A stretch of DNA of 50,692 bases from Prevotellaceae bacterium (lineage in GTDB: Bacteria; Bacteroidota; Bacteroidia; Bacteroidales; UBA932), in contig JAISDB010000152.1 in assembly GCA_031265155.1 (NCBI GenBank), positions 1 through 50,692 of the forward strand. The letters run 5' to 3'. The stretch's first letter is position 1; each line of letters begins with the position of its first letter. This document shows positions 7,173-42,713 of the stretch, in pieces. Both the position numbers and the translations under genes were made by a program. The notes beneath the pieces are model-generated. The model worked only from the letters and a program-made list of their open reading frames with translations. It ran no database searches and was not told the DNA's origin.

Positions 7173-8630
7173 GTGTTTCAACAAAAAATTACAGATTATG
7201 AAATATTGAAAAGCAAAGGCAATTTGCCTGAAAATCCTTTATTGCCAGCGAATTATACACCTCAATGGGATAAAGCCGTAACCGGCGAAAATGAATATAT
7301 TTGGAGCATTGAAGCGCCGATAATAGACAGCAGGCGATTACTGGCAACTTCTCATTTGAATGAACGCAAGTCATGGAAAGCTGCAATTACCCAAAAAGTA
7401 GTGGTTATAAAAGTAAAGGCAACGCAGGTAACAGAAATGTTTTTACTGTCGCTTATTCCCGACCGCAAATGTTTTGAGAAATACCGACACCATCGCGAGC
7501 GTACATATACTCATGCCGGCAACACCCGCAAATTTTCGGGAACAGCCGTATATACCCTGTGGGAAGGTACAAATATTTTGATTAACGGGCATAACAGCGA
7601 CAGTGTAACACAGAAATTCAAATACGACAGTGAAAAATCTTTCTACCTGCAGAAAAATTTTTCTACTGCTGTGATAGGCGAATCGGGCGAGCTTGTACTA
7701 ATGGATTATTATGGTGGAGAGCTTGAAGGATCTGTTGTAATAGGAAACTGGAATCCCGGAGATAAACTGCCTGAATATTGTCCTTATTGTCATTATTCGA
7801 ATTGTCATTGCTGGCAGAATGATGATGGTGGCGGTGGCGGCGGAGGAGGTTATTTTCCTCCCGGCTATACTGACCCGGGAGGTGGCAGCGACAGCGGCAG
7901 TACTAATCCACAACCGACAAAATATACTGTAACTGTTTCAATTTCAGGAAATGGTACAGTAACAGGAAATGGTAGTGCAAGTAATATAAGCGGCGCCGGA
8001 GTATATGAATATAGTAAAGGCACTTATCTAAGGATCACAGCAGCAGCCGGTACCGGATATAAATTTACCGGATGGCAAGGTGATATATCAGGAACATCTG
8101 CTTCAATTTGGATTGAAAATCTCAGTAAAAATATGAGTGTAACGGCTAATTTTGCTTCTAAGGCAGAGCCTTACACCGCACGCCCCGATGATAAAAAATT
8201 TAAAACCAGTTTCAAAAACACCATGCAAACTCAATTGGATAATGCTTGTGTAGCAAGTGTAATGGCTTACATAAGAGAAGTATTTTGCGGAGGTGCTTTT
8301 GACGATGGATATTATATTTTAAAATATGCTGAAAAATATGATAATTGGCTTCCTGAAACTGGAATACCAATAGGGCAAGTACAATCATTTGTATCTGATT
8401 ATTTTGCGATAGGAACATATACCTCATGGCATTCTGCCATCAATGCAGGGAAAGTCATATTAACAGATGCTCCATCCAATATTAGTGGAAGTTCTCATGC
8501 CGTATTGGTTGTAGGGTATGGCGCTGATGGTTCGCTTATATATATGGATCCGGAAGCAGGATCTTTAATTCGAGCAGATGCCGATTATCTTCTCGGAAAT
8601 ATAAAAATTGTAATTAATAAATGTCAATAA
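7173..8630 (+). CDS. multidomain protein: unknown N-domain, Cys cluster, poly-Gly linker, InlB-B/Listeria-Bacteroides-type repeat, C-terminal C39-like papain-fold cysteine peptidase
   Basis: GTG start 8 nt after AAGGAGG (7158-7164). There is no signal peptide. It contains G8 with GGGSDSGS, then YTVTVSISGNGTVTG...GYKFTGWQGD...VTANF. The peptidase-like signature is QLDNAC(359)VASV ... SSH(442)AVLVVGYGADGSLIYMDP. Confidence 0.7.
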   Translation: MFQQKITDYEILKSKGNLPENPLLPANYTPQWDKAVTGENEYIWSIEAPIIDSRRLLATSHLNERKSWKAAITQKVVVIKVKATQVTEMFLLSLIPDRKCFEKYRHHRERTYTHAGNTRKFSGTAVYTLWEGTNILINGHNSDSVTQKFKYDSEKSFYLQKNFSTAVIGESGELVLMDYYGGELEGSVVIGNWNPGDKLPEYCPYCHYSNCHCWQNDDGGGGGGGGYFPPGYTDPGGGSDSGSTNPQPTKYTVTVSISGNGTVTGNGSASNISGAGVYEYSKGTYLRITAAAGTGYKFTGWQGDISGTSASIWIENLSKNMSVTANFASKAEPYTARPDDKKFKTSFKNTMQTQLDNACVASVMAYIREVFCGGAFDDGYYILKYAEKYDNWLPETGIPIGQVQSFVSDYFAIGTYTSWHSAINAGKVILTDAPSNISGSSHAVLVVGYGADGSLIYMDPEAGSLIRADADYLLGNIKIVINKCQ

Positions 8631-24618: not shown

Positions 24619-25110
24619 ATGAATAATATCAAGAATAAATTAGTAACGCTTACATGCGGATTAGTGTTATTATGCATGTCCGGTATAGCCAAGGCAGATT
24701 GGCATGAATATATTGTTTCAGGATATGATGATTGCGGAAAATATTACAACAACACTGTTCGTTCATTTCATCCATTAACCCAGCATCAGATTGATTATGC
24801 TAACTGGTTAGTAAAGACACAAATCACTTGTGGTGGCGGCAGTTCTGATAATGAGTTAGAATATTGTTGTGATGTTACTCCCGATAAGGCTTGTCCATAT
24901 TTGGCTTATTATATGTGTGGTACAAATGGATTTTATTATCTTTATGAAACTTGTAGTGATAGTAATATGTTCGACAATCCTTGCGACTGTTATGGAGATT
25001 TATATGATGATTATGGAGGTTCGGATGAGGAATATGAAGGTTCAGATAATGACTATGGAAATTCATATGATAATTATGGAGGTTCGGATGAAGAATATGA
25101 AGGTCCATGA
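24619..25110 (+). CDS. secreted Cys-rich protein with acidic Tyr/Asp/Gly-rich repeat tail
   Basis: 163 aa. It has a Sec signal (…SGIAKA/DW) and 9 Cys in the mature part. The tail DDYGGSDEEYEGSDNDYGNSYDNYGGSDEEYEGP is encoded by a 63-bp direct repeat. It is the last gene before a strong terminator. Confidence 0.6.
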   Translation: MNNIKNKLVTLTCGLVLLCMSGIAKADWHEYIVSGYDDCGKYYNNTVRSFHPLTQHQIDYANWLVKTQITCGGGSSDNELEYCCDVTPDKACPYLAYYMCGTNGFYYLYETCSDSNMFDNPCDCYGDLYDDYGGSDEEYEGSDNDYGNSYDNYGGSDEEYEGP

Positions 25111-25145
25111 TTAAAAAGAATAATATCTGATTCTGTTATGACTGC

Positions 25146-25186
25146 AAAACAAAGACAGGCTGCAAATAGCAGCTTGTCTTTGTTTT
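25146..25186 (+). terminator. intrinsic terminator closing the SusC/D operon
   Basis: An 18-bp stem AAAACAAAGACAGGCTGC / GCAGCTTGTCTTTGTTTT with one G-T pair, ending in a T-run. Confidence 0.65.
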
Positions 25187-25378
25187 ATGTTCGGTTTAGT
25201 TCGTTTTTTTGAGCTAATTCGTAAGCAGCAACCGGCTTATAAATCTTAATTGTCCGTTTAGGATTGCCGCACTTGCCCGTGTGCAGTCATCGCATTAATG
25301 CGAAGGAAAGTTGTTGCTTCAATAAATATGATATGAAACAGATTATTATATGCTTAAAATTCATCAATTTATTGAATC

Positions 25379-25464
25379 ATCATTGCGAGCGAAGCGAAGC
25401 AATCCATAAAGAATTTTTTATCTGTAATTTTCCGGATTGCTTCGAGCTGCGCCCTCACAATGAC
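25379..25464. repeat. REP-like hairpin element, copy 1
   Basis: aTCATTGCGAGCGAAGCGAAGCAATCC ... GGATTGCTTCGAGCTGCGCCCTCACAATGAC. It has the same termini and inner stem as the copies at 33461 and 42524. Confidence 0.7.
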
Positions 25465-25498
25465 GAAAAACGGTTTTTTCATTAACTTGATGACATTT

Positions 25499-26086
25499 GC
25501 CTTTCGCCGATAAGAAAAAGATCTAAAACACTCCGGTGTAGCCTTTCGCCGATAAGATCAAGATCTAAAACACTCCGGTGTAGCCTTTCGCCGATAAGAT
25601 CAAGATCTAAAATACTCCGGCATAGCCTTACACCGATAAGATCAAGATCTAAAATACTCCGGCATAGCCTTACACCGATAAGATCAAGATCTAAAATACT
25701 CCGGCATAGCCTTACACCGATAAGATCAAGATGTAAAACACTCCGGCATAGCCTTACACCGATAAGATCAAGATCTAAAATACTCCGGCATAGCCTTACA
25801 CCGATAAGATCAAGATCTAAAATACTCCGGCATAGCCTTACACCAATAAGATCAAGATCTAAAATACTCCGGCATAGCCTTACACCGATAAGATCAAGAT
25901 CTAAAACACTCCGGCGAAGCCTTACGCCGATATGATCAAGATCTAAAATACTCAGGCGTATCCTTACGCCGATAAGATCAAGATCTAAAACACTCCGGTG
26001 TAGCCTTTCGCCGATAAGATCAAGATCTAAAATACTCCTGCGTAGCCTTTCGCCGACATGATCAAGATCTAAAACACTCCGGCGTA
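25499..26086. repeat. tandem array, 14 x 42 bp, each unit carrying an inverted repeat and two GATC sites
   Basis: Units were counted by hand. The consensus is gccttacgccgataagatcaagatctaaaayactccggcgta. Units 3-10 are nearly identical. A 15th unit breaks off at 26087. Confidence 0.92.
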
Positions 26087-26134
26087 GCCATTGTTTTATT
26101 ACCGATTTCATGTAAATATTTTTATAATTAACTC

Positions 26135-26312
26135 ATGTTATGCAGGACAGTTAAAGCCGCATTGCCTGAAAGGCAGGACAAACGGAGCGTACGAAAGTTC
26201 TGCCTTTCAGGCAGTATGATATTGCAGTTTCCTTGCCGATGGTCATCGACCACCGGTTATGAAAATTACGTCCTTTCAGGACTGTGCGGCTCCGACCGGT
26301 TGTGCGTAACAT
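26135..26312 (+). ncRNA. candidate structured RNA / cis element (unclassified)
   Basis: It has a closing helix 26135-26144/26303-26312, an inner helix 26155-26162/26284-26291, a 16-bp hairpin 26164-26179/26197-26212 and a small hairpin 26270-26282. G-U pairs favour the + strand. Confidence 0.3.
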
Positions 26313-26390
26313 CAGTTATTAAATATAACTTTAATAAATAATTAGGCATTGAAAGAAGATTTCAGCGCGTTACACAATTCAAACCATACA

Positions 26391-26421
26391 AAAAACGGCT
26401 GACTTTCGGTCAACCGTTTTT
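26391..26421. terminator. bidirectional intrinsic terminator downstream of the alkaline phosphatase gene
   Basis: AAAAACGGCTGAC-tttcg-GTCAACCGTTTTT. The stem has one mismatch and is flanked by A5 and T5. Confidence 0.6.
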
Positions 26422-26443
26422 ATACTGCTGAAATGAATTTTAT

Positions 26444-27661
26444 TTAAAATTCAAATCCTGCCGCCTGCATTATTTTACGGGGAATTTCGGTATTGTCAAA
26501 CTTGCCCGTGAATAATTCGGCTCCTGCGCCTGTTGCATACAGCGGTACAACAATTCCCGTATGTCCTTTTGTGCTGAAGCCAACGCCTGCCGCAGTGTTT
26601 ATCGAATCGCAAATCGCTCTGCCGTTTTCCTTGTCTAAAACGCCTACTGAACCTGTCTGTCCGTCAAGGCTTGCAAAGCCCTGCTTTCCGCCTCCCGTTC
26701 GCGCCAGCGTTATGCCTCCTGTTTCGTGGTCAGCCGTAACGATTATAAGAGTTTCGTCAGGATATTTATTGTAAAAATCAACGGCAACCTGCACTGCTTC
26801 CGACAAATCAATAACTTCTCTGACTGTTCCTGCCGCATCGTTATCGTGTGCGCACCAGTCGATGATTCCGCCTTCTGCCATAATAAAAAATCCTTTGTCT
26901 TCTCTTGCCTTAAGGAATTTTATTTCGGCTTCTACAATGTCCGAAAGCTTTGCTTCGCCCTGTTTTCTGTTGATTGAATACGACAGGTTTTGTATATCAT
27001 CATTTTCATTGAAAAAAGCGACGACCTTACTTACATTTGCCGAAATTTCGTTTATTTCTTTTACTCCGCGAGTAACCGCATATCCATTGTTTCCGGTTAT
27101 TTCTTCCAGCGATTGCAGATCTTTGGTTTTACCTTTGTCCTGCATAAAACTTCCGCCTCCGAAAAAATCAAATCCGCTTTGCCAAAGCTGAAGACCTATT
27201 TCGTAATAAGCAGTACGGCTAATATTGTTTGCATAAAAAGCAGCCGGTGTCGCATGGTTTACAGCAACGTTTGAACTTATTCCTATTTTAAATCCCTTTT
27301 CCTTGAGCCTGTACGAAACGCTTTTGAGTTTTGTAATCGAATCGGGAGCCATGCCAAGCATGTGGTTTTTGGTTTTGTATCCTGTGGAAAATGCCGTTCC
27401 GGATGCGGATGAGCATGTAGTAAAGCTGCTTGCCGAATACGTTGTTACAAACCCGGTGTATGGAAATTTTGAAAACGACAGATATTCGCTTCCTATGTTT
27501 CCCGACCTGTCAGCCAGATATGCTTCGGTAAGCGTAACATGAGCAATTCCCATGCCATCGCCTACGAAAAGAAATATGTATTTGGCTTTTTTACTGTTTT
27601 GTGCAAAACATGCACTGCAAACCATTACGATGCATAAAATTGTGGATAGTATCTTTTTCAT
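26444..27661 (-). CDS. alkaline phosphatase (PhoA family)
   Basis: 405 aa. It has a signal peptide, GDGMG with the nucleophile region, and the TADHETGG metal-site motif. Confidence 0.9.
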   Translation of the reverse strand: MKKILSTILCIVMVCSACFAQNSKKAKYIFLFVGDGMGIAHVTLTEAYLADRSGNIGSEYLSFSKFPYTGFVTTYSASSFTTCSSASGTAFSTGYKTKNHMLGMAPDSITKLKSVSYRLKEKGFKIGISSNVAVNHATPAAFYANNISRTAYYEIGLQLWQSGFDFFGGGSFMQDKGKTKDLQSLEEITGNNGYAVTRGVKEINEISANVSKVVAFFNENDDIQNLSYSINRKQGEAKLSDIVEAEIKFLKAREDKGFFIMAEGGIIDWCAHDNDAAGTVREVIDLSEAVQVAVDFYNKYPDETLIIVTADHETGGITLARTGGGKQGFASLDGQTGSVGVLDKENGRAICDSINTAAGVGFSTKGHTGIVVPLYATGAGAELFTGKFDNTEIPRKIMQAAGFEF

Positions 27662-33260: not shown

Positions 33261-33460
33261 TGATTATTTCAAAATATTTGGTAAAAATAATAAAAATTCA
33301 TGAAACATTATATTCCTGCGGAATACTTTACAATAAAAAATAAAAGCAATGGATTTTTTTAATGTTCTATAAGGTTTTGTATGGGTATTAACAGAATGCC
33401 TGCTATACCGCAATGACAACCGTATGCACATTTTAGACTTGACAGGTTAGAAAAAGAAAC

Positions 33461-33536
33461 GTCATTGCGAGGCGGAACGCCGAAGCAATCCGGTATAAAT
33501 CTGCGTTATGGATTGCTTCGCTTCGCTCGCAATGAC
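33461..33536. repeat. REP-like hairpin element, copy 2
   Basis: GTCATTGCGAGGCGGAACGCCGAAGCAATCC - 18 nt - GGATTGCTTCGCTTCGCTCGCAATGAC. Confidence 0.75.
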
Positions 33537-33618: not shown

Positions 33619-33624
33619 ACTTTA

Positions 33625-33745
33625 TGTGTACTTTTGCAAAGTACAGATAGATTCTTTAAAAGTACATGTGTACTTTTGCAAAGTACAGATGGATTCTTTA
33701 AAAGTACATGTGTATTTTTACAAAGTACAGATGGATTTTAAAATT
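33625..33745. repeat. tandem repeat, about 3 x 42 bp, GTAC-rich nested palindromes
   Basis: Units run 33625-33666 and 33667-33708 (1 mismatch), plus a degenerate third. Each contains GTACTTT-tgc-AAAGTAC. The junctions form AAAAGTACA-tg-TGTACTTTT. Confidence 0.8.
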
Positions 33746-42346: not shown

Positions 42347-42382
42347 AATGCCTTCGGTATGAATTGTATATGCCTTTTAATT

Positions 42383-42448
42383 AAAACGTCGAAACCTTTC
42401 AGGCAAAACGTCGAAACCTTTTGGATAAAACGTCGAAACCTTTTGGGT
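42383..42448. repeat. tandem repeat, 3 x 22 bp
   Basis: aaaacgtcgaaacctttcaggc / aaaacgtcgaaaccttttggat / aaaacgtcgaaaccttttgggt, between the adaptor and TolC genes. Confidence 0.88.
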
Positions 42449-42523
42449 AGGTCGCACGGAAATTTAATAGAGTTTATATTTAATAAAGCATTATATGCGT
42501 CAACTCCAATAGATTATTCTGCC

Positions 42524-42607
42524 GTCATTGAGAGGAGTGTAACGACGAAGCAATCTGTACAAGAACATGACTATTGGATTGCTTCACCGCAAGCGGTTCG
42601 CAATGAC
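42524..42607. repeat. REP-like hairpin element, copy 3
   Basis: GTCATTGAGAGGAGTGTAACGACGAAGCAATC ... GGATTGCTTCACCGCAAGCGGTTCGCAATGAC. Confidence 0.7.
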
Positions 42608-42713
42608 GTTTCAATAAATTGATGAATTTAAAGCATGTAATAATCTGTTCTATATAATATTTAATATAAATCGAATATAATTTGAAGATTAACATACAGG
42701 TAACAATAAAAAA

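Follow-up and report, generated by a model that had tools for sequence, protein, structure and literature searches.

Several classes of bacterial DNA are built from short units in tandem. Intergenic minisatellites, or VNTR loci, are exemplified by the mycobacterial MIRU-VNTRs; MIRUs are dispersed at many loci. The partition site sopC of the F plasmid consists of 12 repeats of 43 bp that are bound by SopB, and lies beside sopAB on a low-copy plasmid. Pneumococcal BOX elements follow the order boxA-boxB(n)-boxC, in which the 45-nt boxB module is repeated in tandem; BOX is present in more than 100 copies per genome, with few boxB copies. NsiR1 of Nostoc is a series of tandem sRNA genes, each unit with its own promoter and an RNA of ∼60 nt. 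Within the Bacteroidales, BrickBuilt of P. gingivalis is a MITE with an internal 23-nt minisatellite, a leader and a tail, and is always intergenic (Klein et al. 2015, PMC4596501); its array is spacer-less, reaches ∼23 copies, and 19 copies of the element are found per genome (PMC4596501).

The array described here was found in a 50.7-kb stretch of DNA (the window) from a Prevotellaceae bacterium whose genes there, among them Mfd, Asd, RelA/SpoT, DprA, TatD, ExbBD, and SusCD, are those of a housekeeping chromosome. It lies inside a 1,333-bp gap between converging genes, which bears out the gene-free island of the initial annotation. To the left, a plus-strand SusC/SusD/peptidase/DUF4302/BACON/163-aa operon ends at 25110; to the right lies an alkaline phosphatase gene, and a terminator closes each side (Table 1). 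A Pfam scan of the 38 window ORFs of at least 120 aa identified no ParA/ParB, Rep, Cas, or recombinase, in line with the absence of partition, Cas, replication, and recombinase genes annotated initially, and no KorB or RHH partition protein. There is no DnaA box in the gap, and a reading of the gap as oriC was rejected for that reason.

Table 1. Features in and around the gene-free gap, with positions in the window.
Feature	Position	Strand	Evidence
Terminator hairpin of the SusC/SusD/peptidase/DUF4302/BACON/163-aa operon	25146-25186	+	18-nt arms, 94% complementary
Left foldback element, MITE/REP-like	25357-25498	none	Terminal inverted repeats, DNA fold
Spurious 209-aa ORF, 14-aa period (LDLDLIGVRLCRSI)	25482-26111	−	Codon usage, variants, homology
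Tandem array, 14.1 head-to-tail 42-bp units	25499-26089	none	TRF, unit table, distance matrix
Homogenized core, units 4 to 9	25625-25876	none	Distances from majority unit
Best-kept junction palindrome, GGCGTA-TCCT-TACGCC, 6 bp	25955-25970	none	Junction alignment, pair counts
Right mosaic of small GC-rich hairpin modules, REP/BIME-like	26129-26322	none	Fold, sister-MAG copies
Intrinsic terminator of alkaline phosphatase gene	26391-26421	−	13-bp stem, then T run
Alkaline phosphatase gene	26444-27661	−	Pfam Alk_phosphatase

Applied to the window, TRF gave a period of 42 for the array, with 93% matches, 0 indels, and a score of 909, confirming the 14 tandem units first annotated; the window resembles a short-read metagenome contig, and the figure of 14.1 copies comes from that single assembly. 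A 21-nt core, allowed up to 3 mismatches, occurs 14 times in the window against 0.00 expected. The majority unit is GCCTTACACCGATAAGATCAAGATCTAAAATACTCCGGCATA, and the ancestral 42-bp unit would have been GCCTTACGCCGATAAGATCAAGATCTAAAAYACTCCGGCGTA. The units are contiguous and have no spacers; a CRISPR array was considered and rejected, as there are no unique spacers between units and no cas genes in the window ORFs scanned.

The distances of units 1 to 14 from the majority unit are 7, 5, 2, 0, 0, 2, 0, 0, 1, 3, 4, 5, 4, and 6, so that divergence is lowest in the center and climbs toward both edges. Units 4, 5, 7, and 8 are identical, with unit 9 one base and unit 6 two bases off. This gradient, together with the four identical central units, is a classic pattern that points to slippage or unequal exchange. 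The linker ATAAGATCAAGATCTAAAAYACTCC varies very little across the array, and the most variable positions of the unit, 6, 8, 39, and 40, lie in the arms of the junction palindrome. The claim that nearly all differences between copies are CG transitions proved overstated: CpG transitions make up 18 of the 39 copy-level differences and 4 of the 15 distinct variants. What the one strain provides is thus a run of head-to-tail, non-coding 42-bp units with a homogenized center and diverged edges, and we consider it probable, short of certain, that the array is a young, lineage-specific, non-coding minisatellite of the VNTR type.

An improbable rival reading is that the repeat is real and that short-read assembly has distorted its copy number or the order of its units. 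Exact repeats of 105 bp and 100 bp lie within the array, and same-strain Logan contigs built at k=31 fail to cross the region; the contig names of related MAGs indicate k119 MEGAHIT assemblies. Against an artifact, every exact internal repeat is shorter than 106 bp, so that k of at least 119 gives a unique path; indeed, because the longest repeat is 105 bp, any assembler with k of at least 106 could resolve the array. The unit variants, moreover, form a smooth gradient and are not scrambled.

The non-coding nature of the array was examined through its open frames. The reverse-strand ORF reported initially does exist; it begins with ATG and is open through all 14 units, which is the argument for a 209-aa tandem-repeat protein encoded on the minus strand. 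This ORF barely exceeds the repeat, however, starting 8 codons before it and ending 5 codons past it. Its codon-usage score of −0.39 falls in the range of off-frames (−0.47), against 0.30 ± 0.06 for 26 real genes, and its variants (4 synonymous versus 11 non-synonymous) stand at the chance level, 27% synonymous being expected. No homologue of the ORF was found among 5.8 billion proteins, there is no Pfam match and no gene on record with its product, and the ORF was not called as a gene. The opposite strand, too, has a nearly open second frame, free of stops across units 1 to 10 as first described; an exhaustive phmmer search with its translation matched only RS-rich low-complexity proteins. 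The protein reading is therefore close to refuted. We conclude that the array is non-coding, as the initial annotation had it, on the strength of off-frame codon usage, chance-level variation, and the lack of a homologue or Pfam match.

The initial annotation placed a short inverted repeat at every unit junction. This stands as the inferred ancestral state; today, an intact 7/7 Watson-Crick inverted repeat is found at 0 of the 13 junctions. Complementarity of 6/6 survives at one junction only, the copy correctly singled out as best preserved (Table 1), and the remaining junctions have 1 to 3 mismatches in the 7-bp arms. That same copy alone stands out when folds are compared with shuffles (z = −4.0). 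With G-U pairs included, the paired share of junction cells is 75.5% for the plus strand and 87.8% for the minus strand; since slid controls pair only 20 to 51% of cells, the junction palindrome is real as a remnant. The observed junction pairing was reached by 500 of 500 shuffles, and the stems of the 13 junctions contain no compensatory change or covariation, no pair being altered on both sides. Both arms have decayed in most units, and asymmetrically; the junction palindrome is decaying. Elsewhere, the only singleton junction palindrome detected was at 8161-8178, with 2 mismatches, at chance level and inside a coding ORF.

These remnants bear on whether the array is transcribed, as a multi-hairpin RNA, a tandem sRNA array, or a stack of weak back-up intrinsic terminators downstream of the alkaline phosphatase gene (minus strand). 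On the minus strand, 7 pairs do persist at the majority junction by means of two G-U wobbles, as the initial annotation proposed and pair counts confirm, and the minus strand pairs more junction cells than the plus strand. Eight of the 13 terminator-like sites of the region lie within the array on the minus strand, and each of the eight combines a hairpin with a U-rich stretch downstream. The −7 promoter motif of Bacteroidetes is TAnnTTTG, and each unit contains TATTTTAG, one base off this motif. Yet the fold of a majority-type unit is no more stable than that of shuffled sequence (minus strand, z = −0.5 [−0.53]; plus strand, z = −1.8), and there is no covariation. The canonical −7 motif is absent from the whole gap on both strands, and Rfam, at gathering and at permissive thresholds, returned nothing credible for the array or the right-hand element. 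Strong terminators close both flanking operons ahead of the array, and the G-U "rescue" amounts to two mutations later copied by amplification. We regard transcription in any of these forms as highly improbable.

GATC sites number 26 in the 588 bp of the array; the count of 28 given initially was corrected because one site is gone from unit 1 and one from unit 6. In 12 of the 14 units the paired GATC core is uniform, and the density is 44 per kb in the array versus 1.1 per kb in the remaining window, where GATC is avoided (56 observed versus 143 expected). One period spans four helical turns (42 = 4 × 10.5), and the two dyad centers, AGATCT and the junction palindrome, are exactly 21 bp apart. 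Sites spaced by whole helical turns sit on one face of the DNA. The uniform linker, the four-turn period, the 21-bp dyad spacing, and the GATC count fit recent amplification from one seed; a phased protein-binding array would be compatible with them too. As a separate observation, the genome's avoidance of GATC, GGCC, and CTAG contrasts with the GATC density of the array, and this contrast is the one feature perhaps relevant to methylation.

On these grounds the array might be a multivalent DNA scaffold bound in trans, whether centromere-like, nucleoid-organizing, or a set of phased GATC pairs for a methylation-sensitive protein, an explanation that we hold to be very unlikely. Phasing on one helix face, the uniform GATC pair, and its density against an avoiding background speak for it, as does a formal resemblance to sopC of F (12 × 43 bp). 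The 50.7 kb of housekeeping chromosome, however, contains no ParA/ParB or other candidate partner gene; the dyad-symmetric arms, which are the binding site in sopC, are the least conserved part of the unit and decay asymmetrically; and the gap has no DnaA boxes and no relative examined shares the array. Recent amplification accounts for the uniform core, as the GATC bases vary as often as the others (3 distinct variants in 8 positions versus 12 in 34). Its most specific form, a putative trans-acting chromosomal nucleoprotein scaffold of 14 four-turn-phased units, each a GATC pair (AAGATCAAGATCT) read by a methylation-sensitive or nucleoid-organizing protein encoded elsewhere, merits very little credence. 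Were it true, the array could serve, where converging genes meet in a GATC-purging genome, to organize the chromosome, for sequestration, or as a fork barrier.

Both flanks of the array consist of other repeats. On the left, the array begins one base past the right end of the foldback element, which has 21-nt terminal inverted repeats around its core (GTCATTGCGAGCGAAGCGAAGCAATCC...GGATTGCTTCG...CACAATGAC); the inverted repeat, 25356-25376/25478-25498, is 81% complementary, and the DNA fold has a z score of −4.0. Further copies of this element are found at 42598-42663 and 33460-33535, and in loci L008 and L011. Tandem repeats lie within ∼100 to 150 bp of the other two copies in the window, three of 22 bp at 42382-42446 and a 21/42-bp repeat at 33624-33737, and their sequences are unrelated to the 42-mer. 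On the right, the mosaic element starts ∼40 bp from the array and folds strongly (MFE z = −8.6 for the plus strand, −7.7 for the minus strand). It is multicopy in the sister MAG Gx481_bin100 (L017, 7995-8257; L018, ∼8150-8346), and no 42-mer array lies beside these copies; the right mosaic element is independent of the array. Its candidacy as a partner ncRNA was rejected, as the sister-MAG copies are built of modules, differ from one another by entire modules, and adjoin no array. Identical Logan contigs from the same strain (SRR14710921) break at 25365 and 26257, from which it follows that the flanks of the array are repeated. An 18-nt direct repeat, 25180-25197/26091-26108, was dismissed as a target-site duplication, its 78% identity being at chance level. 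Unrelated 21/42-bp arrays are present elsewhere in the source genome and in relatives; these genomes therefore readily build such arrays.

This setting raises the alternative of a dispersed composite mobile element of the BrickBuilt/BOX type, with the array as its internal module and possibly with outward promoters. The array abuts the right terminal inverted repeat of the foldback element, the other two window copies of that element are also near short tandem repeats, the flanks are repeated, and BrickBuilt provides a Bacteroidales precedent (PMC4596501). Both terminal inverted repeats of the left element, though, precede the array; the left and right flanks are linked by no inverted repeat at seed 7; and the sister MAG has the right mosaic element without the 42-mer array. 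The repeats near the other left-element copies are unrelated in sequence to the 42-mer, of which the 50.7-kb window and the collections searched yielded no further copy. We consider such a composite element, in which a MITE-like element would have trapped a direct repeat, unlikely.

The 42-mer was sought further afield, as the initial annotation had proposed, and no other array of it came to light. The exact 21-mer core had 0 matches in 185,579 species genomes, the JGI metagenomes, and IMG/VR, and was likewise absent from 143 fetched loci. Metagenomes scanned for three GATCAAGATC cores, with the spacing left variable, gave at least 120 matches; those listed were of the (GATCAA)n type, unrelated to the 42-mer, and the best blast E value among the matches listed was ∼0.05. 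A blastn search in distant mode with the whole gap against plasmids and phages matched nothing to the array and gave 31- to 37-nt matches to the REP core only. Synteny was followed from the alkaline phosphatase gene at 13 loci and from the BACON/DUF4987 protein at 5 loci; neither an array nor an empty site was recovered, because the neighbors on both flanks are different in every relative among these loci. The synteny of relatives stops at the alkaline phosphatase terminator, and the gap is a synteny breakpoint. In the only other assembly of the strain (Logan SRR14710921), contigs stop on either side of the array, and the closest relatives are MAGs whose names suggest the termite gut. Short-read assemblies break at such arrays, and for this reason the missing relatives count only weakly against a conserved function.

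Taken together, the array is real, lies in a nest of repeats at a synteny breakpoint, and increases in divergence from center to edges. The amplification mechanism, and the absence of a sequence-specific function, are what we infer from this. As a minisatellite, it may have arisen from a 42-bp seed with a short palindrome (CGGCGTA-GCCT-TACGCCG) and an internal AAGATC-AAGATC microduplication. Replication slippage or unequal recombination would have amplified the seed head to tail in a dispensable spacer, between converging, terminated transcription units and beside a foldback MITE/REP-like element. The center would have been homogenized recently, and the edge units would be older and decayed. 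The sopC-like binding array or sponge RNA first suggested gained no positive support, given the variable arms, the shuffle-level fold, the surrounding repeat nest, and the lack of a −7 motif, an Rfam match, or relatives. Should the array have any effect, for instance as a weak additional terminator, on DNA structure nearby, or by clustering methylation sites, that effect is probably incidental.

The practical value of a minisatellite here would be modest, with potential as a strain-typing (VNTR) marker. It is also a hazard for assembly and annotation, as same-strain contigs break around it and it produces a spurious 209-aa ORF. The array would matter more only if the 42-mer were protein bound or conserved, and nothing here points that way.

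Set against the systems outlined above, the array shares with NsiR1 many tandem units, each ending in a hairpin and U-rich tract on one strand; the NsiR1 unit, however, holds a promoter and an RNA, whereas the unit here is 42 bp and has no canonical promoter motif. BOX has a similar tandem module of ∼45 bp with hairpin potential, other repeat modules alongside, and an intergenic position, but it occurs in more than 100 copies per genome and in a set A-B-C order, neither of which was seen for the array. The resemblance to sopC lies in a nearly equal period and copy number (42 bp × 14.1) and a unit derived from a 7-bp inverted-repeat sequence. In sopC, though, the inverted repeats are conserved as the SopB site, whereas the arms are the most degenerate positions of the array; sopAB is adjacent, whereas no parA/parB-type gene lies in the 50.7 kb; and sopC belongs to a low-copy plasmid, whereas the array sits on a housekeeping chromosome and has no plasmid or phage match.

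BrickBuilt is closer. It is likewise a Bacteroidales element, spacer-less, intergenic, and joined to MITE-like sequence, and annotation pipelines predict spurious hypothetical genes across it. It differs in its unit (23 nt versus 42 bp) and in the ends of its leader and tail, which are inverted repeats that bracket the array; here, the foldback neighbor is complete in itself to one side of the array, the mosaic on the right stands apart from the array, and the searches turned up the repeat at no other locus. MIRUs occur at many loci, whereas the 42-mer, a new unit sequence, has one known locus, and VNTR loci are defined by copy-number polymorphism among strains, whereas the array is known from one assembly. 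With VNTR loci it nevertheless shares spacer-less head-to-tail units of tens of base pairs, an intergenic and non-coding position with an incidental open frame, restriction to one lineage, a homogenized center, and decayed edges. If it is a minisatellite, the array joins BrickBuilt of P. gingivalis as a case in which a Bacteroidales genome collects foldback elements and minisatellites at synteny breakpoints.

Tandem Repeats Finder resolved the repeat region as one array with a period of 42 bp, 14.1 copies, 93% matches, no indels, and a score of 909, in agreement with the 14 tandem units of the initial annotation. The 21-nt core GATCAAGATCTAAAAYACTCC occurred 14 times at ≤3 mismatches, always within the array and nowhere else in the window; the expectation from shuffles was 0.00. 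The majority unit is GCCTTACACCGATAAGATCAAGATCTAAAATACTCCGGCATA; the unit varies least in its linker, ATAAGATCAAGATCTAAAAYACTCC, and also contains a micro-duplication, AAGATC-AAGATC. GATC sites number 26 rather than the 28 first claimed, with units 1 (GAAAAAGATC) and 6 (GATCAAGATG) deviating. Units 1 to 14 lie, in order, at distances of 7, 5, 2, 0, 0, 2, 0, 0, 1, 3, 4, 5, 4, and 6 from the majority unit. Replication slippage or unequal exchange in a tandem array classically leaves a homogenized center and edges that grow progressively older, and amplification by either process would account for this pattern here. CpG transitions, earlier said to make up nearly all differences between copies, account for 18 of the 39 copy-level differences but only 4 of the 15 distinct variants; the impression that they are nearly universal reflects two mutations that were amplified, not a mutational bias. 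The longest exact repeat within the array is 105 bp, so an assembler with k ≥ 106 can find a unique path through it. In run SRR14710921, two k=31 Logan contigs match the window at 100% identity and end at 25365 and 26257, flanking the array. The array is plausible as assembled, its copy number resting on this one assembly; a copy-number artifact is quite unlikely and would leave the nature of the element unchanged.

A reverse open reading frame of 209 aa (25482-26111) is bounded by the repeat, which it overhangs by 8 codons at one end and by 5 at the other. Its codon-usage log-odds score was −0.39, compared with 0.30 ± 0.06 (minimum, 0.165) for 26 real window genes and an average of −0.47 for their wrong frames. 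The distinct unit variants comprise 4 synonymous and 11 nonsynonymous changes in this frame, which is at chance level (27% synonymous). The ORF has no Pfam match, no homologue among 5.8 billion proteins, and no gene record for its product, though other proteins of the same contig are on record. A plus-strand frame is indeed open across units 1 to 10, as first described; its translation matched only RS-rich low-complexity proteins among 1.84 billion representative proteins. We conclude that the array is non-coding, as originally read, and that a coding repeat, for all these open frames, is extremely unlikely.

The hairpin said to span each junction, CGGCGTA-GCCT-TACGCCG, is a reconstructed ancestor: it stands as an ancestral remnant but not as the present state. 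Complementarity is 7/7 at no junction, and 6/6 only at 25955-25970. Counting wobble pairs, 75.5% of cells are paired on the plus strand and 87.8% on the minus strand; slid controls pair only 20 to 51% of cells, and the palindrome is therefore real as a remnant. It is not being maintained: variation within the unit is highest at arm positions 6, 8, 39, and 40, no two-sided pair change was found in 13 junction-centered units, and 500 of 500 column shuffles attained the observed percentage on either strand. The majority junction carries a G-to-A change in each arm, at adjacent pairs. DNA and plus-strand RNA are thereby left with two mismatches, and minus-strand RNA with two G-U wobbles; amplification spread these two mutations, and compensation did not arise repeatedly. 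That the array is transcribed into a hairpin RNA, or acts as a stack of weak terminators, is very unlikely. Majority-type two-unit segments folded no better than shuffles (z = −0.53, minus strand; −1.78, plus strand), and only the segment with the best-preserved copy stood out (z = −4.0). The array has no Rfam match. The Bacteroidetes −7 motif, TAnnTTTG, is absent throughout the gap, each unit holding on its minus strand a near-match, TATTTTAG, that departs from the motif at one base.

Two transcription units converge on a 1,333-bp gap that holds the array and contains no DnaA box. Beyond the gap and these units, the window is ordinary chromosomal DNA, with genes for a FabG-like reductase, ClC channel, ECF sigma factor, Asd, Mfd, ExbB/ExbD, asparaginase, TatD, DprA, NamZ, a nucleoside symporter, MacB-type ABC transporter parts with HlyD and TolC-like proteins, RelA/SpoT, and OmpH. 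As noted at the outset, ParA/ParB, Rep, Cas, integrase, and transposase genes are absent among the scanned window ORFs (≥120 aa). The last gene of the SusCD operon (24619-25110, plus strand) encodes a 163-aa secreted Cys-rich protein with an acidic tail of 21-bp (7-aa) repeats, DYGGSDEEYEGS; it belongs to no Pfam family, and the exact protein is present in only one other assembly (Logan SRR14710921). At 48170-50692 (minus strand), a large protein with a T9SS C-terminal sorting domain carries at least 9.2 copies of a 177-bp (59-aa) tandem coding repeat (87% match) and continues past the window end.

Positions of the array, its neighbors, and related elements (L-numbered loci are from related genomes; L017 and L018 are from Gx481_bin100, the sister MAG)
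Feature	Position	Strand	Remark
42-bp array	25499-26089
Operon: SusC, SusD, Peptidase_Mx1, DUF4302, BACON/DUF4987 protein, 163-aa acidic-repeat protein	ends 25110	+
Hairpin after SusCD operon	25146-25186
Alkaline phosphatase gene	ends 26444	−
Strong terminator of phosphatase gene	26391-26421	−
Foldback element	25357-25498		immediately left of array
Foldback copies/cores, window	42520-42663 (42598-42663 by narrower bounds), 33460-33535	−
Foldback copies/cores, relatives	include L008 ~9280, L011 ~12190
Mosaic element	26129-26322		~40 bp right of array
Mosaic element, sister MAG	L017 7995-8257; L018 ~8150-8346
21/42-bp array	33624-33737		divergent gap dprA/namZ
Orthologous array, sister MAG	L003 2250-2320
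21-bp dyad-symmetric array, ×12.9	L004 11985-12287		just upstream of gene
21-bp dyad-symmetric array, ×11.2	L018 7013-7249		just upstream of gene

With a foldback element on its left and a mosaic element on its right, the array is embedded in a cluster of independent dispersed repeats. The foldback element folds into a single long, imperfect palindrome (DNA fold z = −4.0), with 21-nt terminal inverted repeats around the core GTCATTGCGAGCGAAGCGAAGCAATCC...GGATTGCTTCG...CACAATGAC; across its dispersed copies this REP/MITE-like element has the core GTCATTGCGAGCGAAGCGAAGCAATCC...GGATTGCTTCG...CTCGCAATGAC. Matches of 31 to 37 nt to the core (92 to 97% identity) in a Novosphingobium plasmid and in Helicobacter canis phage contigs indicate that the motif is very widely dispersed. 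About 100 bp from one foldback copy, three 22-bp repeats, CCAAAAGGTTTCGACGTTTTAT, lie at 42382-42446 between HlyD-like and TolC-like efflux operon genes. The mosaic element consists of small GC hairpins, with folding far more stable than that of shuffles (z = −8.6 and −7.7), built from the modules TGCCTGAAAGGCA, GTCCTTTCAGGAC, CCGATGGTCATCGACCACCGG, and CCGCAGGTC..GACCTGCGG; it looks REP/BIME-like, has no Rfam family, and is annotated as "hypothetical protein" by gene callers. Its translation matched two such proteins in the sister MAG, at two other places, where whole modules are present or absent, loops are flipped, and the element usually lies just downstream of genes; neither locus has the 42-mer array. 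The array starts at the base directly after the foldback element, and BrickBuilt of P. gingivalis is a precedent for a composite element with a minisatellite (PMC4596501). Both points favor a BrickBuilt- or BOX-like composite mobile element, but the array lacks bracketing inverted repeats and no second copy was found, and we regard this origin as unlikely.

The exact core was absent from 185,579 species (one genome each), JGI metagenome contigs, and IMG/VR, and a blastn search with the entire gap as query matched only ∼35 nt of REP core in plasmids and phages. The closest genomes are Prevotellaceae MAGs, led by Gx481_bin100 (phosphatase, 94% amino acid identity), then Kf353, Cc175, Im510, and others; names and accession series suggest a termite-gut metagenome origin. 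Synteny of the phosphatase cluster with seven relatives stops at ∼26390-26446. Different sequence follows there, in the sister MAG an arginyl-tRNA synthetase gene, and all seven lack the array. Orthologues of the SusCD operon (≤69% identity) have different downstream genes in each relative, and no array beside them. Because flanking synteny ends differently in relatives, the gap is a synteny breakpoint. Both flanking clusters (∼25110-26444 versus L003-L011 and L019-L023) have different neighbors in every related genome examined, so that the repeat-rich gap marks a recurrent rearrangement breakpoint. Across the collections above and the part of the source genome covered by the window, the array appears specific to this lineage, with the caveat that assemblies from short reads are prone to breaking at arrays of this type.

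These genomes build 21/42-bp arrays readily, and the 21-bp period (two helical turns) recurs among them. In sequence, the L004 and L018 arrays resemble neither one another nor the 42-mer, to which the array between dprA and namZ is likewise unrelated. The latter array, with dyad core AAAGTACACATGTACTTT, has a conserved counterpart at the orthologous site of the sister MAG and for that reason, unlike the 42-mer array, may be a genuine operator or regulatory array.

The one curious feature of the 42-mer array is its 26 GATC sites, set against strong avoidance of some palindromic tetramers in the window minus the array (GGCC, 1 versus 117 by Markov expectation; CTAG, 0 versus 18.6; GATC, 56 versus 143), which suggests present or past restriction-modification pressure. 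This density (44 GATC per kb), a period of four helical turns, and the exact 21-bp spacing between the dyad centers of AGATCT and the junction palindrome would suit a DNA scaffold predicted to be bound in trans; the arms, however, are degenerate, a partner gene is missing, and conservation is lacking, leaving such a scaffold little probability.

The best-supported account is that the array is probably a young, lineage-specific minisatellite without demonstrated sequence-specific function, because its variation is neutral, its palindrome is decaying, it occupies a dispensable convergent spacer that is already terminated, and it has no relatives. Absence of function, like the mechanism of amplification, is what we infer from these observations; the remaining points are direct results. 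The sopC-like architecture first proposed holds for period and copy number only; the conserved inverted repeat, linked parAB operon, and plasmid setting that define sopC are missing, the arms here being degenerate. The array is a new sequence family of an already known kind: it behaves most like a bacterial VNTR, and the described element closest to it in kind is the BrickBuilt minisatellite, from a different species of Bacteroidales.
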